A stretch of DNA of 64,000 bases from a virus. Every line of letters starts with the position of its first letter. Position 1 is the stretch's first letter. The stretch covers positions 1-64,000 of the IMG/VR virus record IMGVR_UViG_3300035703_000042. The stretch is one strand, 5' to 3'. The translations under genes and the position numbers were made by a program. The notes under the pieces were generated by a model. The model had not been told where the DNA came from. It was given only the letters and a program-made list of their open reading frames with translations, and searched no databases. Shown in pieces: positions 1-34,415 of the stretch.

Positions 1-2
1 AG

Positions 3-194
3 CCTTATTCGATTGTCGCTGGATCCAGTTACTTGGGAAATTGGTCAAAAATGAATGTGAGATCGTTGATATTGGATCAAATAAATGTTGTTGATCGCTG
101 CGAAATAGGTGCAGCATCGACTGTGACAAAAAATATTATCGAACCAGGCAGATATCTAGGATCTCCAGCCCGTAGATGGGCAGGCAATCACTGA
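3..194 (+). CDS. 5'-truncated hexapeptide-repeat sugar acyltransferase (NeuD/PglD-like), C-terminal part
   Basis: Own translation of frame 3: ...RCEIGAASTVTKNIIEPGRYLGSPARRW..*, the typical IGAxSxVTK...GxPAR tail; TGA overlaps next ATG (TGATG). Confidence 0.7.
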   Translation, partial: PYSIVAGSSYLGNWSKMNVRSLILDQINVVDRCEIGAASTVTKNIIEPGRYLGSPARRWAGNH

Positions 195-1162
195 TGATTT
201 TGACTCCGCCTTATCAATTAATTGATCAAATGGACAGGTTGCCTTCGGAATTTTCGATGGCCGATCATCTAGGTGGATTTGATTTGGATTTAAAAAACGA
301 TCTTTTTACCAGGCTCGATGACTACGCCAGGAACAATGATCGAACATTTATAATAAATGTGGATCAATTTTATCCAAAAAAAATACATGACCATTATAAA
401 AATCTACAAATCAAGTTTGATTACGATTTATTTTTTACCTATCGAAATTTACCAAATAATACATTAGTTGATTATAAGTTACATCCTAAACTCCAATACA
501 AAAATTTTCTCTGTAGTTTCAACGGAAGTCCGCATGTCTCGAGGAAACTTTTGGTAGCTATACTAGACAGGTTTGGTCTTTTTAATCCTTCTTACTCAAC
601 CAAGAACTTTTCTTTTTCAGTTGATCAGTTGGACGGACATATTAAAGATTATACCAACAACGATCAGAATGCGTATTATAGAAAGTTCTTTATTGGTGAT
701 CAAAGCGACAATTTTTTTGAGAAAATATATACTATCAATTATAATCGAACCAATCATTTGAATAATATATCTATTCTTGAGGAATCTATTACAAAAAGTT
801 TTTTACATATAGTTTCAGAGACTATAGCTACCAGTTATTATCCTTTTGTCACAGAGAAATTTTTTTATAGTATTGTTACCAGAGGGTTATTTCTGACGTT
901 TGGTCAACCTGGCTGGTACAGCTATATTGAACACTATTTTGGATTTCGAAAATATCTAAATATTTTTGATTATAGATTTGATGAAATCCAAAACCCAATT
1001 GAACGTTTGATTGAGTTAATATCTATGATTTTAAAATTTTCTAAATTTACTCCCTATGAATGGCACGATCTCAGTATTATGGAGCGCGACAATATCGAAT
1101 TTAACTACGACAATTATTTCAGTGGTGATTATCTAAAAAAAGTAAAAGAATACTGTGAGTGA
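194..1162 (+). CDS. putative glycosyltransferase-like protein (IVSET..TEK family)
   Basis: FLHIVSET-x6-FVTEK..F..G motif resembles GT10-like C-terminal domains; AT-rich; start moved to the ATG overlapping the upstream stop. Confidence 0.5.
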   Translation: MILTPPYQLIDQMDRLPSEFSMADHLGGFDLDLKNDLFTRLDDYARNNDRTFIINVDQFYPKKIHDHYKNLQIKFDYDLFFTYRNLPNNTLVDYKLHPKLQYKNFLCSFNGSPHVSRKLLVAILDRFGLFNPSYSTKNFSFSVDQLDGHIKDYTNNDQNAYYRKFFIGDQSDNFFEKIYTINYNRTNHLNNISILEESITKSFLHIVSETIATSYYPFVTEKFFYSIVTRGLFLTFGQPGWYSYIEHYFGFRKYLNIFDYRFDEIQNPIERLIELISMILKFSKFTPYEWHDLSIMERDNIEFNYDNYFSGDYLKKVKEYCE

Positions 1163-1262
1163 TTTTGGCAACAAAATTAATTTCGACTAGTAAATCAACA
1201 CTTGTTTTTGTTTCTAAAACGTTATACTATACATACATATTGTTATTTTGATTGGAAAAAAT

Positions 1263-2324
1263 ATGGGCAAACCCTTTGACATTTCAAAATTCCGCAAGGA
1301 AATTACCAAAAGTATCGATGGTCTTTCCATCGGCTTCAATGACCCCACTGACTGGGTCAGTACCGGTAACTATGCTCTCAATTACTTGATTTCAGGCGAT
1401 TTCCACCGCGGCGTGCCCTTGGGCAAGGTCACTGTGTTTGCCGGAGAATCGGGTGCTGGCAAGAGCTATATCTGTTCTGGCAATATCGTAAGACACGCCC
1501 AAGAGCAAGGCATCTTTGTTGTTCTCATCGACACAGAAAACGCCCTGGACGAAGCATGGTTGCATGCGTTAGGTGTGAGCACAGATGAAAGCAAGCTCTT
1601 GAAGCTCAGCATGGCCATGGTGGATGATGTGGCCAAGACCATTTCAACATTCATGACCGACTACAAAGCACTACCAGCAGAGGATCGTCCCAAGGTGCTG
1701 TTTGTGATAGACTCGGTGGGCATGCTGCTCACCCCCACTGATGTCAATCAGTTTGAGTCGGGCGACATGAAAGGCGATCTAGGTCGCAAAGCCAAGAGCC
1801 TTACGGCCCTGGTGCGCAACTGTGTCAACATGTTTGGTGCCTACAACGTGGGCATGGTGTGTACCAATCACACCTACGCCAGCCAGGACATGTTTGACCC
1901 CGACGACAAGATCTCAGGTGGACAGGGCTTTATCTATGCAAGTTCTATCGTGGTGGCCATGCGCAAGCTCAAGCTCAAAGAGGACGAGGACGGCAACAAG
2001 ATCTCTGATGTCATGGGCATCCGGTCAGCCTGTAAAGTCATGAAGACCAGATACGCCAAACCCTTTGAAGGTGTGCAGGTCAAGATCCCTTATGAGACTG
2101 GAATGAATCCCTACTCGGGTCTAGTAGACTTGGCTGAGAAAAAAGAGCTCTTGAAAAAGGATGGTAACCGTCTCATGTTCGTGACTTCAGATGGCGAGAT
2201 CATCAAGCAGTTCCGCAAGGCCTGGGAAAACAACGAAGATGGATGCCTTGACAAGTTAATGGCAGACTTTGCAAATCAAAAAGCTGAACTAAGTACTCCC
2301 GACACAAACATTGAAGGAGAATAA
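1263..2324 (+). CDS. uvsX: UvsX/RecA-like recombinase
   Basis: Walker A GESGAGKS, IDTENALD, VIDS Walker B, NHTY, SGG-x-G motifs. Confidence 0.95.
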   Translation: MGKPFDISKFRKEITKSIDGLSIGFNDPTDWVSTGNYALNYLISGDFHRGVPLGKVTVFAGESGAGKSYICSGNIVRHAQEQGIFVVLIDTENALDEAWLHALGVSTDESKLLKLSMAMVDDVAKTISTFMTDYKALPAEDRPKVLFVIDSVGMLLTPTDVNQFESGDMKGDLGRKAKSLTALVRNCVNMFGAYNVGMVCTNHTYASQDMFDPDDKISGGQGFIYASSIVVAMRKLKLKEDEDGNKISDVMGIRSACKVMKTRYAKPFEGVQVKIPYETGMNPYSGLVDLAEKKELLKKDGNRLMFVTSDGEIIKQFRKAWENNEDGCLDKLMADFANQKAELSTPDTNIEGE

Positions 2325-2325
2325 C

Positions 2326-2565
2326 ATGTCCCTGGATCTAGCAAGCGAAATCTGGACCGAACTCAAGAGATACATTGGATCAGTGGACCGCAGCGAAGCT
2401 GCTGATGTTCTTGTGAATCTATTAGTAGATCATGATCACGACGCTGACGAAATACGATCAGCGTTCAAAGGCGATTCGGATGTCAAACAAGCATTACAAG
2501 TTTATTCTGACTCCGAAGCCGACGACGTCGACGACGATTATGAGGACGAGGACGACGAATACTGA
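2326..2565 (+). CDS. hypothetical acidic protein
   Basis: AAGGAG SD upstream; acidic C-terminal tail; lies between uvsX and uvsY. Confidence 0.7.
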   Translation: MSLDLASEIWTELKRYIGSVDRSEAADVLVNLLVDHDHDADEIRSAFKGDSDVKQALQVYSDSEADDVDDDYEDEDDEY

Positions 2566-2567
2566 TC

Positions 2568-3020
2568 ATGTGGTATAGCCGAGTCATCGCGGATCTGTCA
2601 GCTATTCCTGATTTCATCGCTCACTATGAACGTGAGCTAGATACTGCCAAATCAGAGTGTCGCATTGGCGGACTCATTGAAAAGAACATCAAAGAGCTGC
2701 CTGGCATCACTGAACATAGATTCAATCAACTACAAGAAGTTGAAGCGGTGCTTAACTATCTCAATATACAACTGCGAAAGATCCGTCGTAGACATTTCCA
2801 GAAGTATTTAGAAAGCTATGCTCGCGCCCTTACTTCTCGCGATGCAGAAAAATATGTAGACGGTGAGGATGAAGTGATTGACTTTGAGACCATCATCAAC
2901 GAAGTGGCATTGTTGAGAAATCGTTGGTTGGGAATCATGAAGGCCTTGGATGCCAAGCAATGGCAGATGGGACACATTGTGCGGTTAAGAACAGCAGGAA
3001 TGGAAGATATCACAGTATGA
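2568..3020 (+). CDS. uvsY: UvsY-like recombination mediator
   Basis: 150 aa helical protein with KYVDGE and KALDAKQWQ motifs, next to uvsX. Confidence 0.8.
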   Translation: MWYSRVIADLSAIPDFIAHYERELDTAKSECRIGGLIEKNIKELPGITEHRFNQLQEVEAVLNYLNIQLRKIRRRHFQKYLESYARALTSRDAEKYVDGEDEVIDFETIINEVALLRNRWLGIMKALDAKQWQMGHIVRLRTAGMEDITV

Positions 3021-3778
3021 TACATCGAGGGTTTGCCACAGCCGAATCTAGTCATGCGCACAGCATGACTGTGCTTTCACAGTTCTATGAGCACGACGAT
3101 TTCATGTCCAGCATTGGTACCTTGATAGACATGGGCTGCGGTGATGGCCGAGACCTAGAATGGTGGGCCACTCGTACCACTCGAGATGATGCACCTATAC
3201 CATTGAATATACGTTGTACCGGTGTGGATACTCGTGAATCATTGCCGATAGCGCACAAGTACAAGAATATCACATATCATCGCCAGGACTTTGAGCAGCC
3301 TTTCCAAATCAACAAAAAATTTGACGTGGTTTGGTGTCATGACGCATTCCAATATGTGATTGATCCTTTCTCTACATTGAAAAACTGGAGAGACATCACT
3401 CACGATGGGGGTATGCTATGCGTCAGTGTCCCCCAAAACACTGTGATGGAATTCAACACACAGGCCTTTGATCAACCCGATCTACAGTACTGGAATTGGA
3501 CAGTGGTCAGTCTCATACATGTATTGGCTGTTTCGGGTTGGGACTGTGCCAGTGGATTTTTCCTGCGCCCGCCCGCAGATCCCTGGATCCATGCCGTGGT
3601 CTATAAAAGCGAGCATGATCCAATGGATCCAAAAACCACTCGATGGGCAACTCTTGCTGAAAAAAATCTTTTACCGGATACCATGACGCGCAGTATTGTC
3701 AAGAACGGGTATCCTCGACAGCGAGATCTCATGTTACCGTGGTTGGACAAGAGTCTTGCGTCGCTCTCACATCTCTGA
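3017..3778 (+). CDS. SAM-dependent methyltransferase
   Basis: LIDMGCGDG motif I, FDVVWCHDAFQY; ATG overlaps uvsY stop (ATGA). Confidence 0.85.
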   Translation: MIHRGFATAESSHAHSMTVLSQFYEHDDFMSSIGTLIDMGCGDGRDLEWWATRTTRDDAPIPLNIRCTGVDTRESLPIAHKYKNITYHRQDFEQPFQINKKFDVVWCHDAFQYVIDPFSTLKNWRDITHDGGMLCVSVPQNTVMEFNTQAFDQPDLQYWNWTVVSLIHVLAVSGWDCASGFFLRPPADPWIHAVVYKSEHDPMDPKTTRWATLAEKNLLPDTMTRSIVKNGYPRQRDLMLPWLDKSLASLSHL

Positions 3779-4634
3779 CCTGAGATTTCAACACGCGCAT
3801 CATGTGATTCAACGGCAGCCCTTCTTGGATCTCTTCTAGGGTCCATTCGGTGTAACACACGTCGTTGATCCATTGTTGACGTTCGGGCATGACCGGAGAT
3901 TCGATGTTGGCCAAATCAGAATTTCCCACCGGTGCTGCCAGGCTAGAAGATCCAACAAAGGCTGGTACTCCGGCAAGCACAGCTTCCACTCCGGGATTGC
4001 TGCTCCAGTTTACCACAGCCCAGGCATTTTGCAAGCTCTCCTGGAAATCATAGCTGTCGTAGGTGTCGGTGAGTCGTACCGGGTGTTGTATCCTTATGTC
4101 GGGCCCAAGGTAGTCGATGTCCAACCTTTCCCGAGGGTGCCATCTCACCAGTATGGGACGTTGTGAATATCGACGTATCTCTTCTACGGTGTTCTTTACC
4201 CAGAGTCCTGTGGCAGGCATGCCCGTCCATTGTTGGCTGTTTTGGCGCTGGGTGGCGATGACTATGTGCTCACCTGTGCCTTTCCACGGAGCCATACGCA
4301 CACCCATCTGTAGATAACGATCTGCGGGCATCATGTCATGATTGAACAAGCCCTGACGATTGACCCCATTGATGCCAATCCTCCAGGTGCGACCACGAAA
4401 CAAGCCTCCTACTTCCAAGACTACCACGGGCAAGCCCAGCTGACGATAGTGCTGCCAGACTTCGGCGTTCCTGCGCATGCGACCTTCCCAGAGCACGCTC
4501 CAGATCACAGCTACATCGGCCATGAAATCGTTCTTTACTATCACATGCCCGCGACGGGCCAATGCAGCTTCAAAAGCCTGAAATACGGGTCGGCTGTTTT
4601 TGGCGCCGAAGTTATCAAATATACTGAATCTCAT
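3729..4634 (-). CDS. capsule-polysaccharide-biosynthesis-like (KpsC/KpsS-like) glycosyltransferase
   Basis: VRWHP and AVVNWSSNPGVEAVLAGVPAF motifs. Confidence 0.6.
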   Translation of the reverse strand: MRFSIFDNFGAKNSRPVFQAFEAALARRGHVIVKNDFMADVAVIWSVLWEGRMRRNAEVWQHYRQLGLPVVVLEVGGLFRGRTWRIGINGVNRQGLFNHDMMPADRYLQMGVRMAPWKGTGEHIVIATQRQNSQQWTGMPATGLWVKNTVEEIRRYSQRPILVRWHPRERLDIDYLGPDIRIQHPVRLTDTYDSYDFQESLQNAWAVVNWSSNPGVEAVLAGVPAFVGSSSLAAPVGNSDLANIESPVMPERQQWINDVCYTEWTLEEIQEGLPLNHMMRVLKSQVRDVRATQDSCPTTVT

Positions 4635-4678
4635 GCGGTTAAATAGGTAGATATAATAGTTATCAGATTGGGATCAGT

Positions 4679-5500
4679 ATGTCGCGCAAGTTCCAGGTAG
4701 TGACCACTTTCCATGATGCAGGTTATCATGCTTATGGAAAAAGAATGATTGAGACTTTCTTGGCCAATTGGCCACGAGAAGTCGGCCTCAGGGTCTATGC
4801 CGAGAACACAGAGATCTTTGAGCGTGCTGAAAATCTACAAATCCTGGATATTTCTTCAACTATACCGGCTCTTGCAGCGTTTAAACAAAGATGGCAATCG
4901 GTGCCAATGGCCACAGGAAATCAAGCACGTGGTCCGCGAGATCGTCGTGGCAAGCAGCCCGGCATCGGATTTAAATGGGATGCAGTGAGATTCAGCCATA
5001 AGGTCTACGCATTTTGCCACGCAGCACGCGATTGTGATGTTGATATCTTGATCTGGATGGACGCTGATACAGTGTGTCACAGTGCCATGCCTTTGAGCTA
5101 TCTAGAATCACAGATGCCCCTGGGTACCAATCTAGGCTATCTCGGTCGAGAAAAAAAATACAGCGAATGTGGTCTCTATGCCTTGGATCTCATCGCTCCG
5201 GGAAGCCGTGAGTTCGTGGACATTTTCCAGGCCTTCTATGATGATGCTGAATCAGGGATCTTCTCACTCAGTGAATGGCACGACAGTTTTGTTTTTGATC
5301 AGGTCAGGGCGATTATGTCAAGGACTCCGTGTTGGCAGGAACTGAATTGGAGTCAGGGTTTGATACGTGGCGAAGGCCATCCTTTGATCAACAGTGCCTG
5401 GGGAGCCTACCTTGATCATCTCAAAGGTGATCGTAAGCAAACAGGTCGTAGTCGGCAGCAAGATCTTCGAGTCACACGCACAGAAAGCTACTGGCAATGA
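4679..5500 (+). CDS. GT-A fold glycosyltransferase
   Basis: RFSHKVYA, IWMDADT (DxD), EWHDSFVFD, DHLKG. Confidence 0.75.
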   Translation: MSRKFQVVTTFHDAGYHAYGKRMIETFLANWPREVGLRVYAENTEIFERAENLQILDISSTIPALAAFKQRWQSVPMATGNQARGPRDRRGKQPGIGFKWDAVRFSHKVYAFCHAARDCDVDILIWMDADTVCHSAMPLSYLESQMPLGTNLGYLGREKKYSECGLYALDLIAPGSREFVDIFQAFYDDAESGIFSLSEWHDSFVFDQVRAIMSRTPCWQELNWSQGLIRGEGHPLINSAWGAYLDHLKGDRKQTGRSRQQDLRVTRTESYWQ

Positions 5501-6168
5501 AAGCATTCATCATATGCCTTTCGGAGATAAACAGCAGTATCACCAGTGCTCGTGTGTTGCAAAAGGATCTCCATGCTGTGGGCATCGATGCTGATCTGTT
5601 TGAAGGGTCATACGGTGATATTGCCCAACAACAATATCTCGAACATGGTCGAGTGTGCCATCCGTGGTCGTTCAAAGGACCCGACCAGCCCTACAGCCAG
5701 ACTCTCACGGCCCAGGATTTCTTGCCCGGCATCTTGGGTTGTTTTGACAGCCATTATCGCCTCTGGCAACTGTGTGCTGATCTAGGAGACCCTATAATGA
5801 TATTCGAGGACGACATCGAGATCGTGCGCGGTTATCAAGAAGTGGCCTGGCAGGACGTGCTCTCCTTGGCTTTCAGTCACAACAAAAAAATGCAGAAGTA
5901 TCTGCAGTATCTGGACAGTCCCGAAGGCGAACCCCGAGCCGAACACTATCGGCAGGCCAGTATGCCTGGCAACGGTGGTTACGCTCTACATCCGCATGCA
6001 GCTCGCGTGTTAGTGGATACCTATGCTCACACGTTCCTGCCTGCGGACAATGCCATCAATCAGCATGTGGTCAAAATCGAGATCCATAACTACATGATGG
6101 GACGAGCACGCGATAAATTAGCAGGAAACATAAGTCTCACGAGATCAAAAATATGGGAACAGAGATGA
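5497..6168 (+). CDS. GT25-family (LPS-type) glycosyltransferase
   Basis: GCFDSHYRLW and IFEDD motifs typical of GT25. Confidence 0.8.
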   Translation: MKAFIICLSEINSSITSARVLQKDLHAVGIDADLFEGSYGDIAQQQYLEHGRVCHPWSFKGPDQPYSQTLTAQDFLPGILGCFDSHYRLWQLCADLGDPIMIFEDDIEIVRGYQEVAWQDVLSLAFSHNKKMQKYLQYLDSPEGEPRAEHYRQASMPGNGGYALHPHAARVLVDTYAHTFLPADNAINQHVVKIEIHNYMMGRARDKLAGNISLTRSKIWEQR

Positions 6169-6716
6169 TAGATCTTTCATGGTTGGATGTTGGCGGTAAG
6201 AAAAAAGTAGAAGGGCACATGCGAGTGGGCGAGGATGTTCGCGACTTCTGGTTGAAGGTTCGCGAGATCACCGGATTCCGATCCGTCATGGAGATTGGAT
6301 TCAATGCTGGCCACAGCAGCGCCTTCTTGCTGGAATTGTTTCCTGACATCACAGTGGTGAGTCACGATATTGGATGGCACAAATATACTGTGCCCAACAG
6401 CGAATTGGTGAAACAACGCTACGGCGATAGGTTCGAGTTTGTGTTGGTGGACAGCTTGCAGATCCGTGCCAAGCATCTACGTGGCAGATTTGATGTGATG
6501 TTCATTGACGGGAATCACGACACAGATTGGATCGACAGCGATCTGCGTCTTTGGATGCAGACTGACATTCCCTATGCCGTGGTCGACGATCTACAGGTCA
6601 AGACCGTGAACACTGTGTATAAGAAATATCTCCCACACTATCAAGAACTGCATCGCGGTCAGTATCACAGCAACACCGGTTCTCCGGTCACGGCCAGTCT
6701 GATAAAGGCACGATGA
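6165..6716 (+). CDS. class I SAM methyltransferase (Methyltransf_24-like)
   Basis: MEIGFNAGHS, FIDGNH, VVDD motifs. Confidence 0.85.
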   Translation: MIDLSWLDVGGKKKVEGHMRVGEDVRDFWLKVREITGFRSVMEIGFNAGHSSAFLLELFPDITVVSHDIGWHKYTVPNSELVKQRYGDRFEFVLVDSLQIRAKHLRGRFDVMFIDGNHDTDWIDSDLRLWMQTDIPYAVVDDLQVKTVNTVYKKYLPHYQELHRGQYHSNTGSPVTASLIKAR

Positions 6717-31966: not shown

Positions 31967-32869
31967 ATGGCCGAACGAATACTACTCGATCGACTCGAGT
32001 TCTATATTACCAACGTCTGTAACCTTACCTGTAACGGTTGTAATCGTTACAACAATTACCATTTCAAGGGGTGGACGGCCTGGGACGAATGGGCCGAGGA
32101 TCTTGAGCGTTGGTCAAAGTACATCGACATCCGACATCCGGTGATCCTGGGCGGCGAACCCTTGATGAATCGTGATATCGTGAAATGGGTCAAAGGCTTG
32201 CGTCGACTATGGCCCGATCATTCAGGAGTGCAGATCCAAAGCAATGGTACCAGGATCGATCGTGTGCGTGGTTTGTACGATGTGCTGGATCCCAAAGAAG
32301 GCAACTGGATCGGTATCAGCATACACAACCCTGATGACAAAGAAGAGATTTTTTCGCGCATACGCAACTTCCTCACACATCCCATACGCGAGACTGCAGA
32401 TAAAAATCATCCCATTGGCAGCGATTTCCAGTTCTACGATGCCAATAACATGTATGTGCATGCTTGGATGAGTAACAAGTTTGTACAGAGCAATATCATC
32501 GAGCGTGATGATGGTACGTTTACAGTATACAATCACGACAACCCCGAACGCGCACATGAGATCTGTACTTTCCGCAGATTCAAGAACTATCACTGGATCA
32601 ACGGACGCATTTACAAGTGCGGACCTGCAGCTCTCATGCCCGAATTTGATCGCCAGCATCATTTTGACATATCCGAAGAGGATCGTGCTATCATGCACGG
32701 ATATCGAGGACTGAGTGTGGACGAGTTTGACGAGCGAGGGCACGACTTCCTTGCCCACATCGATGACATGATTCCGCAATGCAAATTTTGCCCCCAGGAC
32801 TACGATTACAAACCCATTACATTTTCAGACCGCAAAAAGAGTTGGCGGATCAGCACAGAAATATTATAG
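31967..32869 (+). CDS. radical SAM protein
   Basis: CNLTCNGC, GGEP, SNG, C-terminal YKC and CKFC. Confidence 0.88.
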   Translation: MAERILLDRLEFYITNVCNLTCNGCNRYNNYHFKGWTAWDEWAEDLERWSKYIDIRHPVILGGEPLMNRDIVKWVKGLRRLWPDHSGVQIQSNGTRIDRVRGLYDVLDPKEGNWIGISIHNPDDKEEIFSRIRNFLTHPIRETADKNHPIGSDFQFYDANNMYVHAWMSNKFVQSNIIERDDGTFTVYNHDNPERAHEICTFRRFKNYHWINGRIYKCGPAALMPEFDRQHHFDISEEDRAIMHGYRGLSVDEFDERGHDFLAHIDDMIPQCKFCPQDYDYKPITFSDRKKSWRISTEIL

Positions 32870-32908
32870 TTAAACTCGCATGCTGGAGCACCAAGCATAA
32901 GTACTTGT

Positions 32909-33511
32909 ATGAAAAACAAGTATGGAATCAAAAAACAGTGCCTACATTGCGGAGAAGAATTTATAACGAAACTTAGGCTAGTTGACTATTGTTCTCAGCC
33001 CTGTAAGAACCCTAACAACAGACCAGGTCATATTCCCTGGAACAAAGGTAAGACATTAACTCAAGAACAAAAAGCAAAACAAAATACAACAGGGTTAACA
33101 AAAGGTCGGGGATGGAACAAAGGACTCCCTAATGAACTTGCTCGAAAAAGATTTTTAGAGAATAATCCAAATAAAGACGGACGAGTTAACAATCTAAGAC
33201 CTAAAAATTATATAGATGATGAGTTTTCTGCTTATAAGAGAGAATGTCGTAAAGCCACTTATAGAAGTGTTTATCAGATGAAGAAGGAAGGACTGGTGCC
33301 TGAGAATACTGGTAAAAGAAAAAACCAGTACCAGTTAGATCACATAATTCCGTTTAGACAAGGTTATGAACTTGGGATAGATCCCCGACTCATTGGGAGC
33401 AGACAAAATCTGCGTTACATCTTAGGCGAAGAAAATAGATCGAAGTGGGATCGTTTTCAGCCCGACGATGTTTTAAAATCAGTTATAGGAGACAATCATG
33501 GCTTACAGTAA
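32909..33511 (+). mobile_element. free-standing HNH homing endonuclease with NUMOD-like repeats
   Basis: CxxC..CxxxC, (P/G)WNKG x2, LDHIIP...NL...EN.SK; AT-rich; 3' end overlaps iscU start. Confidence 0.8.
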
Positions 33512-33894
33512 GGCCGTTATTGATCATTATGAGAACCCGCGTAATGTGGGTTCGTTTGACAAAGGAGATACGCACGTTGGGACCGGTATGGTTGGCGCCC
33601 CAGCGTGCGGATGACGGAGACGTCATGAAACTACAGATCAAGGTCAATGAAGATGGCATCATCGAAGACGCGAGGTTTAAAACTTACGGCTGCGGATCAG
33701 CCATTGCCTCCAGCAGTCTTGTCACCGAGTGGGTCAAAGGCAAGACACTCGACGAGGCAGCAACTATCAAGAACACAGCGATCGCCCAAGAGCTCGCTCT
33801 TCCGCCTGTTAAAATCCATTGCTCAATACTGGCTGAAGATGCCATCAAAGCAGCCATAGAAGACTACAGGAACAAACATGGCCACGCCAATTGA
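33498..33894 (+). CDS. iscU: Fe-S scaffold IscU, interrupted by a 7-nt insert (join 33498..33611, 33619..33894)
   Basis: MAYSKAVIDHYENPRNVG..VGAPACG-stop, then +1 frame DVMKLQIKV..GCGSAIASSS..LPPVKIHCS; joined product 129 aa; GGAG SD. Confidence 0.9.
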
Positions 33895-34093
33895 AACAGT
33901 GATATTGTGGGCATTGATCATCAGCGGTGAACCGCGTGTGCAAGAAGTCTATCGCACCGAAGAGCCGTGTGTGCGTGCTGCGAGATCGCATCGTGCTCAA
34001 GGAACTTTCGCTTACTGCATGCCCACTAATCAGTTCACGGTTGAAACTAGCACGCATCAACTTCGCAGCCTGGGAGTATTGTTGAATGATTGA
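33878..34093 (+). CDS. small hypothetical protein
   Basis: Overlaps both iscU and iscA; AGGA SD. Confidence 0.55.
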   Translation: MATPIETVILWALIISGEPRVQEVYRTEEPCVRAARSHRAQGTFAYCMPTNQFTVETSTHQLRSLGVLLND

Positions 34094-34415
34094 GATCACC
34101 GACACAGCCGCAGAGCGAGTACAGCAGGCCATCCAACGACGTGGTCGAGGCGTAGGTATCAAGATTGGCGTAAGAACCACCGGGTGTTCGGGACTGGCCT
34201 ATACCTTGGAATTTGTTGATACGGCACCAGACACTCAACAAGGCATAGAACACTACGACATCAAAGGTGTTGGCGTTTTTGTCAACACCGAGCACTGTGT
34301 GTATTTGCAAGGCATGACCATCGACTATCAGCGCCGGGGTCTCAACGAAGGCTTCGAATTCATTAACCCCAACGAAAAAGACCGCTGCGGTTGCGGCGAA
34401 AGTTTCCGAGTTTGA
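34086..34415 (+). CDS. iscA: Fe-S cluster carrier IscA (HesB family)
   Basis: GCSGLAY, F.NPN, CGCGESF. Confidence 0.95.
   Translation: MIEITDTAAERVQQAIQRRGRGVGIKIGVRTTGCSGLAYTLEFVDTAPDTQQGIEHYDIKGVGVFVNTEHCVYLQGMTIDYQRRGLNEGFEFINPNEKDRCGCGESFRV

Follow-up and report, generated by a model that had tools for sequence, protein, structure and literature searches.

A probable homing nuclease cassette that interrupts a phage iscU gene with a short, putatively bypassed insert

Results

An interrupted iscU gene in a putative selfish cassette

The window analysed here, positions 1–64,000 of the virus record IMGVR_UViG_3300035703_000042 (95 kb in IMG/VR; completeness 27% by CheckV), carries an iscU gene that is interrupted by 7 nucleotides (nt) at its most conserved codons and preceded by a small gene for a probable HNH nuclease. 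We propose that positions 32870–33618 form a selfish cassette in which a leader and a gene for an HNH-like homing nuclease precede iscU codons 1–38 and the 7-nt insert. The nuclease would recognise the uninterrupted iscU sequence for VGAPACG-DVM in co-infecting, cassette-free phages and break the DNA at or beside codons 37/38, and repair that copies the cassette-bearing genome would then transfer the nuclease gene together with the insert and the stretch of iscU between them. Altered spacing of the target by the insert would protect the carrier, with some lineages using substitutions in the same ten codons. During translation, a ribosome with peptidyl-tRNA(Gly) on a take-off GGN codon and a slowly decoded stop codon (once AGG) in the A site would hop 4–9 nt to a second GGN codon and resume at Asp39, restoring wild-type IscU. 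We put the probability of this combined model of homing cassette, insert-based immunity and ribosomal hop at roughly two in three. It draws on the anatomy of the locus, the co-occurrence and patchy distribution of nuclease and insert, a recombination boundary, purifying selection on iscU and a regular insert grammar; from these sequence patterns we infer the activity and target of the nuclease, the immunity and the hopping.

The nuclease gene is a free-standing open reading frame (ORF) of 200 amino acids, located, like the neighbouring genes, on the forward strand (positions 32909–33511, stop codon at 33509–33511). Its GC content is 0.36–0.39 compared with ~0.50 in flanking DNA. The 3′ end of this ORF overlaps the start of iscU (ATG at 33498) by 14 nt and contains the Shine–Dalgarno sequence of that gene (AGGAG, 33487–33491, 6 nt before the ATG). 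The first part of iscU comprises codons 1–38 (33498–33611) and ends with Cys37 (TGC, 33606–33608) and the take-off codon for Gly38 (GGA, 33609–33611). The insert, TGA-C-GGA (33612–33618), consists of a stop codon (TGA, 33612–33614), a spacer (C, 33615) and a landing Gly codon (GGA, 33616–33618), and is followed by the second part of iscU, which runs from Asp39 to the end of the gene (33619–33894) in the +1 frame relative to the first. Across the insert the sequence thus reads TGC GGA / TGA C GGA / GAC GTC ATG, and deletion of 33612–33618 gives back the invariant PACGDVM motif. The original prediction, an earlier note made on the letters of the window, had described an AT-rich free-standing gene with a 14-nt overlap and the iscU Shine–Dalgarno sequence inside it, and each of these statements is correct. 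It had also placed the insert ~100 nt downstream at Cys37-Gly38-Asp39, in agreement with the measured position 101 nt past the nuclease stop codon, directly after Gly38.

The interrupted gene encodes an IscU/NifU_N iron–sulfur scaffold, both halves of which exceed the Pfam threshold. The first part matched Pfam NifU_N at profile positions 1–35 (E 4e-10, 40.3 bits) and the second at positions 36–125 (E 1e-36, 126.1 bits; cut-off 22 for both), and the translations contain the cluster motifs PACG, GCGS and IHC with Cys37, Cys63 and Cys106.

The insert is not an assembly artefact. Contigs from the probable source run match the window across this region with no differences, contigs of two other studies cross the insert without indels, and 84 unique insert-bearing contexts were gathered from IMG/VR and metagenome contigs. 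Sequencing or assembly error was rejected given this recurrence in independent studies and dozens of other contigs. An alternative genetic code was rejected as well: the inserts use all three stop codons, their frames differ and the long ORFs of the window are intact under table 11. Transcriptional slippage was also considered, and there is no homopolymer at the insert site.

The nuclease gene co-occurs with an altered iscU site

Every nuclease homologue with enough downstream sequence in the nuclease-based scans of IMG/VR (~95 loci) has iscU as the next gene. The iscU-based scan of the same database returned 80 loci, six of them interrupted after Gly38 and 74 uninterrupted. A full nuclease gene was located upstream in four of the six interrupted loci, the last 44 codons only in L006 and none in L045, compared with 0/74 in the uninterrupted loci. 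Insert alleles chosen without reference to the nuclease, by a pattern scan of metagenomes, had the full gene in 39/51 cases, remnants in 2 and none in 10.

These two kinds of IMG/VR scan, combined with two iscU scans around insert-free nuclease-linked alleles, yielded 227 unique alleles. Neither nuclease nor insert was present in 165, where the site was canonical (VGAPACG-DVM) in 158 and variant in 7. The nuclease accompanied an interrupted site in 44 alleles and an insert-free site in 12, the latter all substituted: VGAPSCG-DVL (7), TGSPACG-DVM (2) or VGAPACG-DLM (3). Two further interrupted alleles had a nuclease remnant (L006) or no nuclease (L045), and four canonical, insert-free alleles had upstream DNA too short to score the nuclease. 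The uninterrupted canonical site therefore occurs in 0/56 nuclease-linked alleles versus 158/167 without a full nuclease gene, the 167 being the 165 uninterrupted alleles plus the insert-bearing L045 and L006. Among the 7 variant nuclease-free alleles are the nearest relatives of the nuclease-linked variants, which is the pattern that loss of the nuclease gene would produce. Phylogenetic independence was addressed with an independent-pairs sign test, in which 11.5 of 15 pairs associated the target variant with the nuclease and 0 went against it (p ~5e-4).

All three comparisons uphold the pairing of HNH gene and insert on which the original prediction had staked its idea, with the correction that about one-fifth of insert alleles are without the nuclease, either through loss or from the outset. 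Its view of the 7-nt insert as the immunity determinant requires a broader wording: insert-type alleles do prevail, but insert length ranges from 4 to 9 nt and about one-fifth of nuclease-linked alleles are substituted instead. In L006 (1905–2036) and L380, only the last 44 nuclease codons are left upstream of an insert-bearing iscU, and these look like decaying cassettes that kept the insert. In cellular genomes the scan pattern detected no insert-bearing iscU, which is weak evidence since the pattern was modelled on phage alleles.

Linkage ends at the insert

Many loci keep the gene order of the window with or without the cassette; L011 and L019, for example, are syntenic and have no nuclease. 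On the tree of the exonuclease backbone the insert alleles are scattered (9 changes versus 11 when shuffled), and on the iscU tree the nuclease trait needs 25 changes. Trees of 99-nt segments of iscU, for each of which shuffling gave ~41 insert-trait changes, locate the edge of the association: nt 1–99, before the insert, needs 2 changes, and nt 16–114 and nt 115–213 after the insert need 31 and 32, respectively. Because 2 changes suffice 5′ of the insert and 31–32 are needed beyond it, the linkage ends at the insert. Pairwise identity among insert alleles exceeds that of insert/non-insert pairs only within iscU nt 46–135, the excess peaking 10–55 nt upstream of the insert in a sliding comparison, and no such excess was detected in the upstream genes, the rest of iscU, iscA or the exonuclease gene. 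On these comparisons, the first part of iscU belongs to the mobile cassette and the second part is backbone DNA.

The same comparisons bear on a history without homing, in which nuclease gene and insert would have been co-inherited in one phage lineage by shared ancestry. The iscU 5′ parts of insert alleles do form nearly a single clade, the insert is probably of single origin, and nuclease-bearing loci were sampled non-randomly. However, insert alleles do not cluster in the flanking genes, the nuclease trait changes repeatedly on the iscU tree, loci with near-identical upstream flanks differ in whether they carry the cassette, the upstream neighbours differ by locus and the independent-pairs test is significant. 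We regard shared ancestry alone as highly improbable.

Junctions of the cassette and displaced iscU remnants

The left boundary of the cassette is visible in the comparison of L068, which carries it, with L036, which does not. Their upstream DNA is 97–100% identical and this identity stops right after the upstream stop codon, where ~640 nt comprising leader and nuclease gene are present only in L068, as a clean insertion relative to L036. The two iscU genes are 74–79% identical in the 5′ part and 85–92% identical after the insert. From the break onwards, a leader of ~39 nt is conserved in nearly all carriers and in the window, where it spans 32870–32908 and begins right after the stop codon of the radical SAM gene directly upstream (31967–32869); the DNA further upstream is unrelated. 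Within the leader lie a motif resembling ATAAGTA/ATAAATA and the 5′ half of a hairpin stem that encloses the start codon of the nuclease. In the window, RNAfold folds this hairpin as TACTTGT-ATGAAAA-ACAAGTA with the start codon in the loop, and the hairpin is present in many loci; covariation at this hairpin was no better than in the best shuffle. Such an arrangement could restrict expression of the nuclease, as in T4 homing endonuclease genes. The conserved end of the leader, ATAAATA(C)TTGT ATG, also resembles a T4-type late promoter box.

At least eight lineages have displaced remnants of the iscU 5′ end upstream of the leader, ranging from 4 to 37 codons. The remnant measures 4 codons in L154, 6–8 in L147, L125/126 and L146, 11 in L164, 12 in L114, 29 in L173 and 37 in L155/L156. 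In L155 it is a complete ORF led by a Shine–Dalgarno sequence (MAYS...GAPAC) that ends after Cys37; leader, nuclease gene and a full iscU of the cassette type come next. No displaced remnant reaches beyond Cys37. The simplest reading is that the recipient iscU was broken at codons 37/38, resected to a variable extent and joined illegitimately to a cassette without upstream homology. A break at the conserved codons had been anticipated by the original prediction and gains support from the recombination boundary at the insert and from remnants ending at Cys37.

A mobile nuclease could also cut elsewhere, for instance at the point of insertion between the genes or near the start of iscU, in which case inserts and substitutions would be repair scars or hitch-hikers. 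Left junctions at iscU codons 4–29 in several lineages point in this direction, as does the position of the highest identity excess upstream of the insert, and free-standing nucleases such as SegG can cut hundreds of nt from their own gene. Against such a site, no nuclease-linked allele has the canonical ten codons, three unrelated types of substitution and all inserts fall precisely there, the linkage ends sharply at the insert and the longest remnant stops at Cys37. Furthermore, a break 10–50 nt upstream of the insert would still be compatible with our model; in T4 the insert, which blocks nicking, is located ~20 nt from the nick (10.1101/2022.08.31.505936). We therefore consider a target outside these codons unlikely.

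Taken with the co-occurrence data, the locus displays several features by which homing endonucleases are recognised, namely patchy presence in collinear genomes, incongruence with the backbone, an altered site in the carrier and apparent co-conversion of flanking sequence, the last in line with the identity excess upstream of the insert and with Mantel correlations of 0.35 versus 0.16. The comparison of carrier and susceptible sites takes the VGAPACG-DVM codons as the presumed target.

The nuclease-like protein

The nuclease ORF is present in a single copy within the 95-kb record. Its product features an N-terminal CxxC...CxxxC zinc-finger-like motif and two WNKG (NUMOD3-like) repeats, and a C-terminal DHIIP...N...N motif with D144-H145, N167 and N176; all these elements are invariant across 13 diverse homologues (alignment A1). 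As judged from this alignment, the family has the H-N-N residue pattern of the HNH (beta-beta-alpha-metal) superfamily, in which a D/E-H dyad with the catalytic His is followed by a structural Asn and a metal-binding Asn or His.

Similarity searches were less decisive. The protein of the window had no Pfam match at E ≤0.01 and did not reach the curated threshold of the Pfam HNH clan, and the DH motif of its relatives gave only sub-threshold matches, to HNH (PF01844; E 0.016 and 0.17) and HNH_4 (E 0.02). The protein matched phrog_5104 (E 3e-9) and, weakly, HNH families of PHROG, and a profile search of the PDB with it found nothing. In the AlphaFold2 (AF2) model, residues 100–195 have predicted local distance difference test (pLDDT) values of 78–87; the top Foldseek and VIA matches were nearly all HNH nucleases, yet weak (E ≥0.26; Z ≤3.4), and neighbours in the ESM Atlas include annotated HNH families. 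Because the DH...N...N motif, the sub-threshold Pfam and PHROG matches, the ESM Atlas neighbours and the structural matches agree, weak as they are, we consider the product of ORF 32909–33511 a probable HNH (H-N-N) nuclease. The HNH label given to it beforehand stands as far as motif and weak matches go, and lacks a score above the curated Pfam cut-off.

No cassette carriers were found in the collection of cultured phages, where the relatives, T4-like phages, match only the C-terminal domain of the nuclease, and a single distant relative was identified in cellular genomes. Acinetobacter phage Acj61 (NC_014661) encodes a distant homologue, a 208-amino acid “hypothetical protein” with a DHIIP...N...N domain (L318, 2147–2773; 36% identity over this domain, E 6e-13). 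Its free-standing gene follows gene 18 (tail sheath) and overlaps gene 19 (tail tube), a placement characteristic of phage homing endonuclease genes. Proteins of this type are probably unannotated free-standing homing nucleases in several T4-like Acinetobacter phages.

Insert grammar and decoding of the interrupted gene

The 84 contexts contain 25 distinct inserts, all of which share the same order of elements: a GGN take-off codon, a stop codon (once AGG), a spacer of 0–3 nt and a GGN landing codon before GAY. Insert length is 7 nt in 52 contexts, 8 nt in 16, 9 nt in 14 and 6 and 4 nt in one each, and the A-site codon is TGA in 41, TAG in 23, TAA in 19 and AGG in one. Both the length and the sequence of the spacer vary freely, and 25/25 variants have the second Gly codon. 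Inserts usually shift the frame, and all three relative reading frames are represented; hence no single frameshift or readthrough event fits, whereas a hop from Gly to Gly fits all inserts. In the landing frame, the ORF after the insert has Asp as its first residue in every case and Val, or occasionally Leu, as its second, with synonymous differences among alleles. Among 46 insert alleles, the ratio of nonsynonymous to synonymous substitution (dN/dS) is 0.15 for the 5′ half and 0.08 for the 3′ half, synonymous divergence (dS) exceeds 1 and no further stops occur, a pattern indicating that both halves of iscU are under purifying selection. We infer that the interrupted iscU is made into one wild-type protein by a ribosomal hop. 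The base after the stop codon is C in 45/83 contexts. A C in this position is a weak termination context, as in prfB, and UGA-C is the shift context of that gene.

Such a cassette could also be mobile with its iscU decoded by +1/+2 frameshifting or readthrough, leaving one to three extra residues between Gly38 and Asp39. A +1 shift at the GGN-stop of 7-nt inserts would give C-G-X-G-D and thus retain the C-G and G-D pairs, the UGA-C context recalls prfB, and cognate re-pairing is awkward for the 31/84 mismatched pairs of take-off and landing codons. This scheme would, however, require three different mechanisms for the 7-, 8- and 6/9-nt classes, and it would tolerate a variable spacer within the most conserved loop of IscU, which is invariant in 158/165 uninterrupted nuclease-free alleles. 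In addition, GGN followed by T is unable to re-pair in the +1 frame, and an invariant second Gly codon is what would be expected of a landing site. Decoding of this kind appears improbable to us.

We find it more improbable still that the gene is not read through at all, being either a decaying pseudogene or the source of two polypeptides (residues 1–38 and a restart at Met41). A GGAG-like sequence with an ATG 5 nt later follows many inserts, and there are known cases of homing nucleases dividing a gene into two functional pieces (10.1101/2022.08.31.505936). The low dN/dS values with saturated dS and no further stop in either half speak against decay. As for a restart, the Asp and Val (occasionally Leu) codons between insert and ATG are retained in the landing frame, GGAGAT is dictated by the Gly-Asp codons and occurs in uninterrupted alleles too, and in five alleles, including the DVL alleles L082–84, L150 and L159, the 20 codons after the insert contain no in-frame start codon.

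Apart from the insert itself, a feature of the encoded peptide distinguishes the insert alleles. Residue 26, 12 codons before take-off (CAC in the window, 33573–33575), is Gln or His in 46/46 insert alleles and in 0/181 other alleles, where nine different residues occur. This pattern may reflect shared ancestry or a nascent-peptide requirement. RNAalifold applied to the insert contexts detected no shared take-off structure (mean z-score ~0). In the window, UGACG-GAGA-CGUCA (33612–33625) can form a 5-bp hairpin starting at the stop codon; this is limited to TGAC...GTCA inserts and does not occur in the other insert classes.

An extended version of the model would view the natural series of hops (+4, +6, +7, +8 and +9 nt) in phage iscU as the product of an arms race with the dedicated homing nuclease. 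As proposed, nuclease lineages would evolve to cut immune alleles, and alleles would escape through spacer length or substitution. A nascent-peptide feature around residue 26 might be needed for efficient hopping, and the nuclease might also cut the canonical iscU of the host, the immune phage copy then being the only working scaffold. With these additions the proposal is tentative, and we think it rather doubtful as a whole.

Several observations weigh against the combined model of homing, immunity and hopping. Linkage is not absolute, as 10/51 insert alleles have no nuclease and 12/56 nuclease-linked alleles no insert. Identity between L068 and L036 after the insert (85–92%) stays below the level of the upstream flank, and the 37-codon remnant comes from a single lineage. 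On the nuclease tree the insert classes are mixed with one another, and the distance (Mantel) correlation between the nuclease gene and the 5′ part of iscU is only 0.35, from which it follows that the cassette recombines internally. The HNH assignment remains under every curated threshold, with best structural scores of Z 3.4 and Foldseek E 0.26. Finally, in the 31 mismatched codon pairs, most of which are GGT to GGA, the two codons neither match nor allow wobble pairing, unlike those of gene 60 homologues; re-pairing may need no more than two G:C pairs in the P site.

Discussion

The closest parallel is the T4 mobA/gene 60 locus, which Bonocora and co-workers reportedly described in 2011 as a mobile cassette of an HNH homing nuclease and a 50-nt bypass. 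In T4, nuclease and bypass insert move together at invariant Gly/Asp codons of gene 60, and a hungry AGG in the A site is also found in gene 60 homologues (10.1101/2022.08.31.505936). Like this system, the iscU locus pairs an HNH-type nuclease with an essential-type gene whose invariant Gly/Asp codons are interrupted by a non-coding insert. Each insert lies behind a Gly take-off codon, starts with a stop codon (or AGG) and ends with a Gly landing codon before Asp; some relatives keep the insert after nuclease loss, and the insert presumably blocks self-cleavage. The two loci also differ. The target is iscU rather than the large subunit of topoisomerase II, and the nuclease gene lies upstream of an iscU of intact length instead of splitting its target gene. 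The nuclease motif is C-terminal, so that the domain order looks different. The gap measures 4–9 nt compared with 50 nt and has no conserved take-off stem-loop, take-off and landing codons often differ beyond wobble, and substitution-type alleles that would be immune coexist with insert alleles. A tblastn search with 13 members of the nuclease family against T4 bases 1–6500 gave chance matches only (E ≥0.77), a limited test given that T4 mobA is defective. The independent evolution suggested by the original prediction fits this lack of similarity to the T4 mobA/60.1 region.

The free-standing Seg and Mob nucleases of T4-like phages offer a second comparison. Like them, the iscU-linked nuclease is encoded by a small AT-rich ORF wedged between conserved genes and overlapping the downstream gene, and the locus resembles their intronless homing in its patchy distribution, co-converted flanking markers and target polymorphisms in the carrier. 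Unlike Seg/Mob systems, immunity at iscU would be achieved mostly by an insert that needs recoding, and one target gene is used across many unrelated phage backbones.

With respect to decoding, the iscU inserts, with their length of 4–9 nt, phage location and accompanying nuclease gene, differ from the byp elements of Magnusiomyces, which are mitochondrial, 27–55 nt long and not known to have an associated nuclease gene. Like the iscU inserts as we interpret them, byp elements are short and mobile, lie in coding regions and are skipped by the ribosome between matched codons (PMC5009743). Synthetic “stop-hops” were produced in E. coli (Weiss et al, 1987, as described in PMC5009743), and the 6-nt iscU variant, GGT TGA GGA, has exactly this form. 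In contrast to those constructs, the iscU inserts are natural, conserved and selected, and also imply hops of 4 and 7–9 nt. No natural in-frame stop-hop was known to Atkins et al (2016), according to whom short counterparts of gene 60 had long been presumed and not found (PMC5009743). The 2022 survey called the gene 60 bypass cassette unique (10.1101/2022.08.31.505936), and our literature searches found no paper linking iscU with bypassing.

The combination of homing nuclease and translational bypass has been known until now from one homologous family, T4 gene 60 and its relatives. The iscU locus would represent a second, independent origin of this solution in a much smaller format, and would support the view that selfish DNA gives rise to bypassing where it has to disrupt a nuclease target whose codons do not tolerate change. 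The 25 natural variants, which differ in hop length, stop codon and take-off/landing pair, would constitute a ready mutational series for hopping without the signals of gene 60.

Neighbouring genes and other insertions

Downstream of iscU, the window contains a 71-codon ORF (33878–34093) that overlaps both of its neighbours, then iscA (34086–34415) and a PD-(D/E)XK exonuclease gene. Searches of Pfam and PHROG gave no match for the 71-codon ORF, homologues of which (37–45% identity) are restricted to a few related loci (L002, L004 and L008). A search of the window for tRNA genes found none. The window also encodes a ribonucleotide reductase, a DNA ligase, helicases and tail-spike-like proteins.

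A different type of insertion was identified in one nuclease-linked lineage (L169, 3090–4496; also L170 and L172–L174), where iscU contains an in-frame insertion of ~340 codons at the second cluster ligand. This sequence (KTYG / C...SHN / CGSAIASS) has the hallmarks of an intein, with Cys1, a terminal His-Asn and a +1 Cys, and matches Pfam Hint at E 8e-5, below cut-off. Phage iscU seems to attract selfish elements of several kinds. Just downstream of the insertion-bearing gene in L169, an ORF at 4508–5269 encodes WNKG repeats and has weak DUF559/Vsr-like matches.

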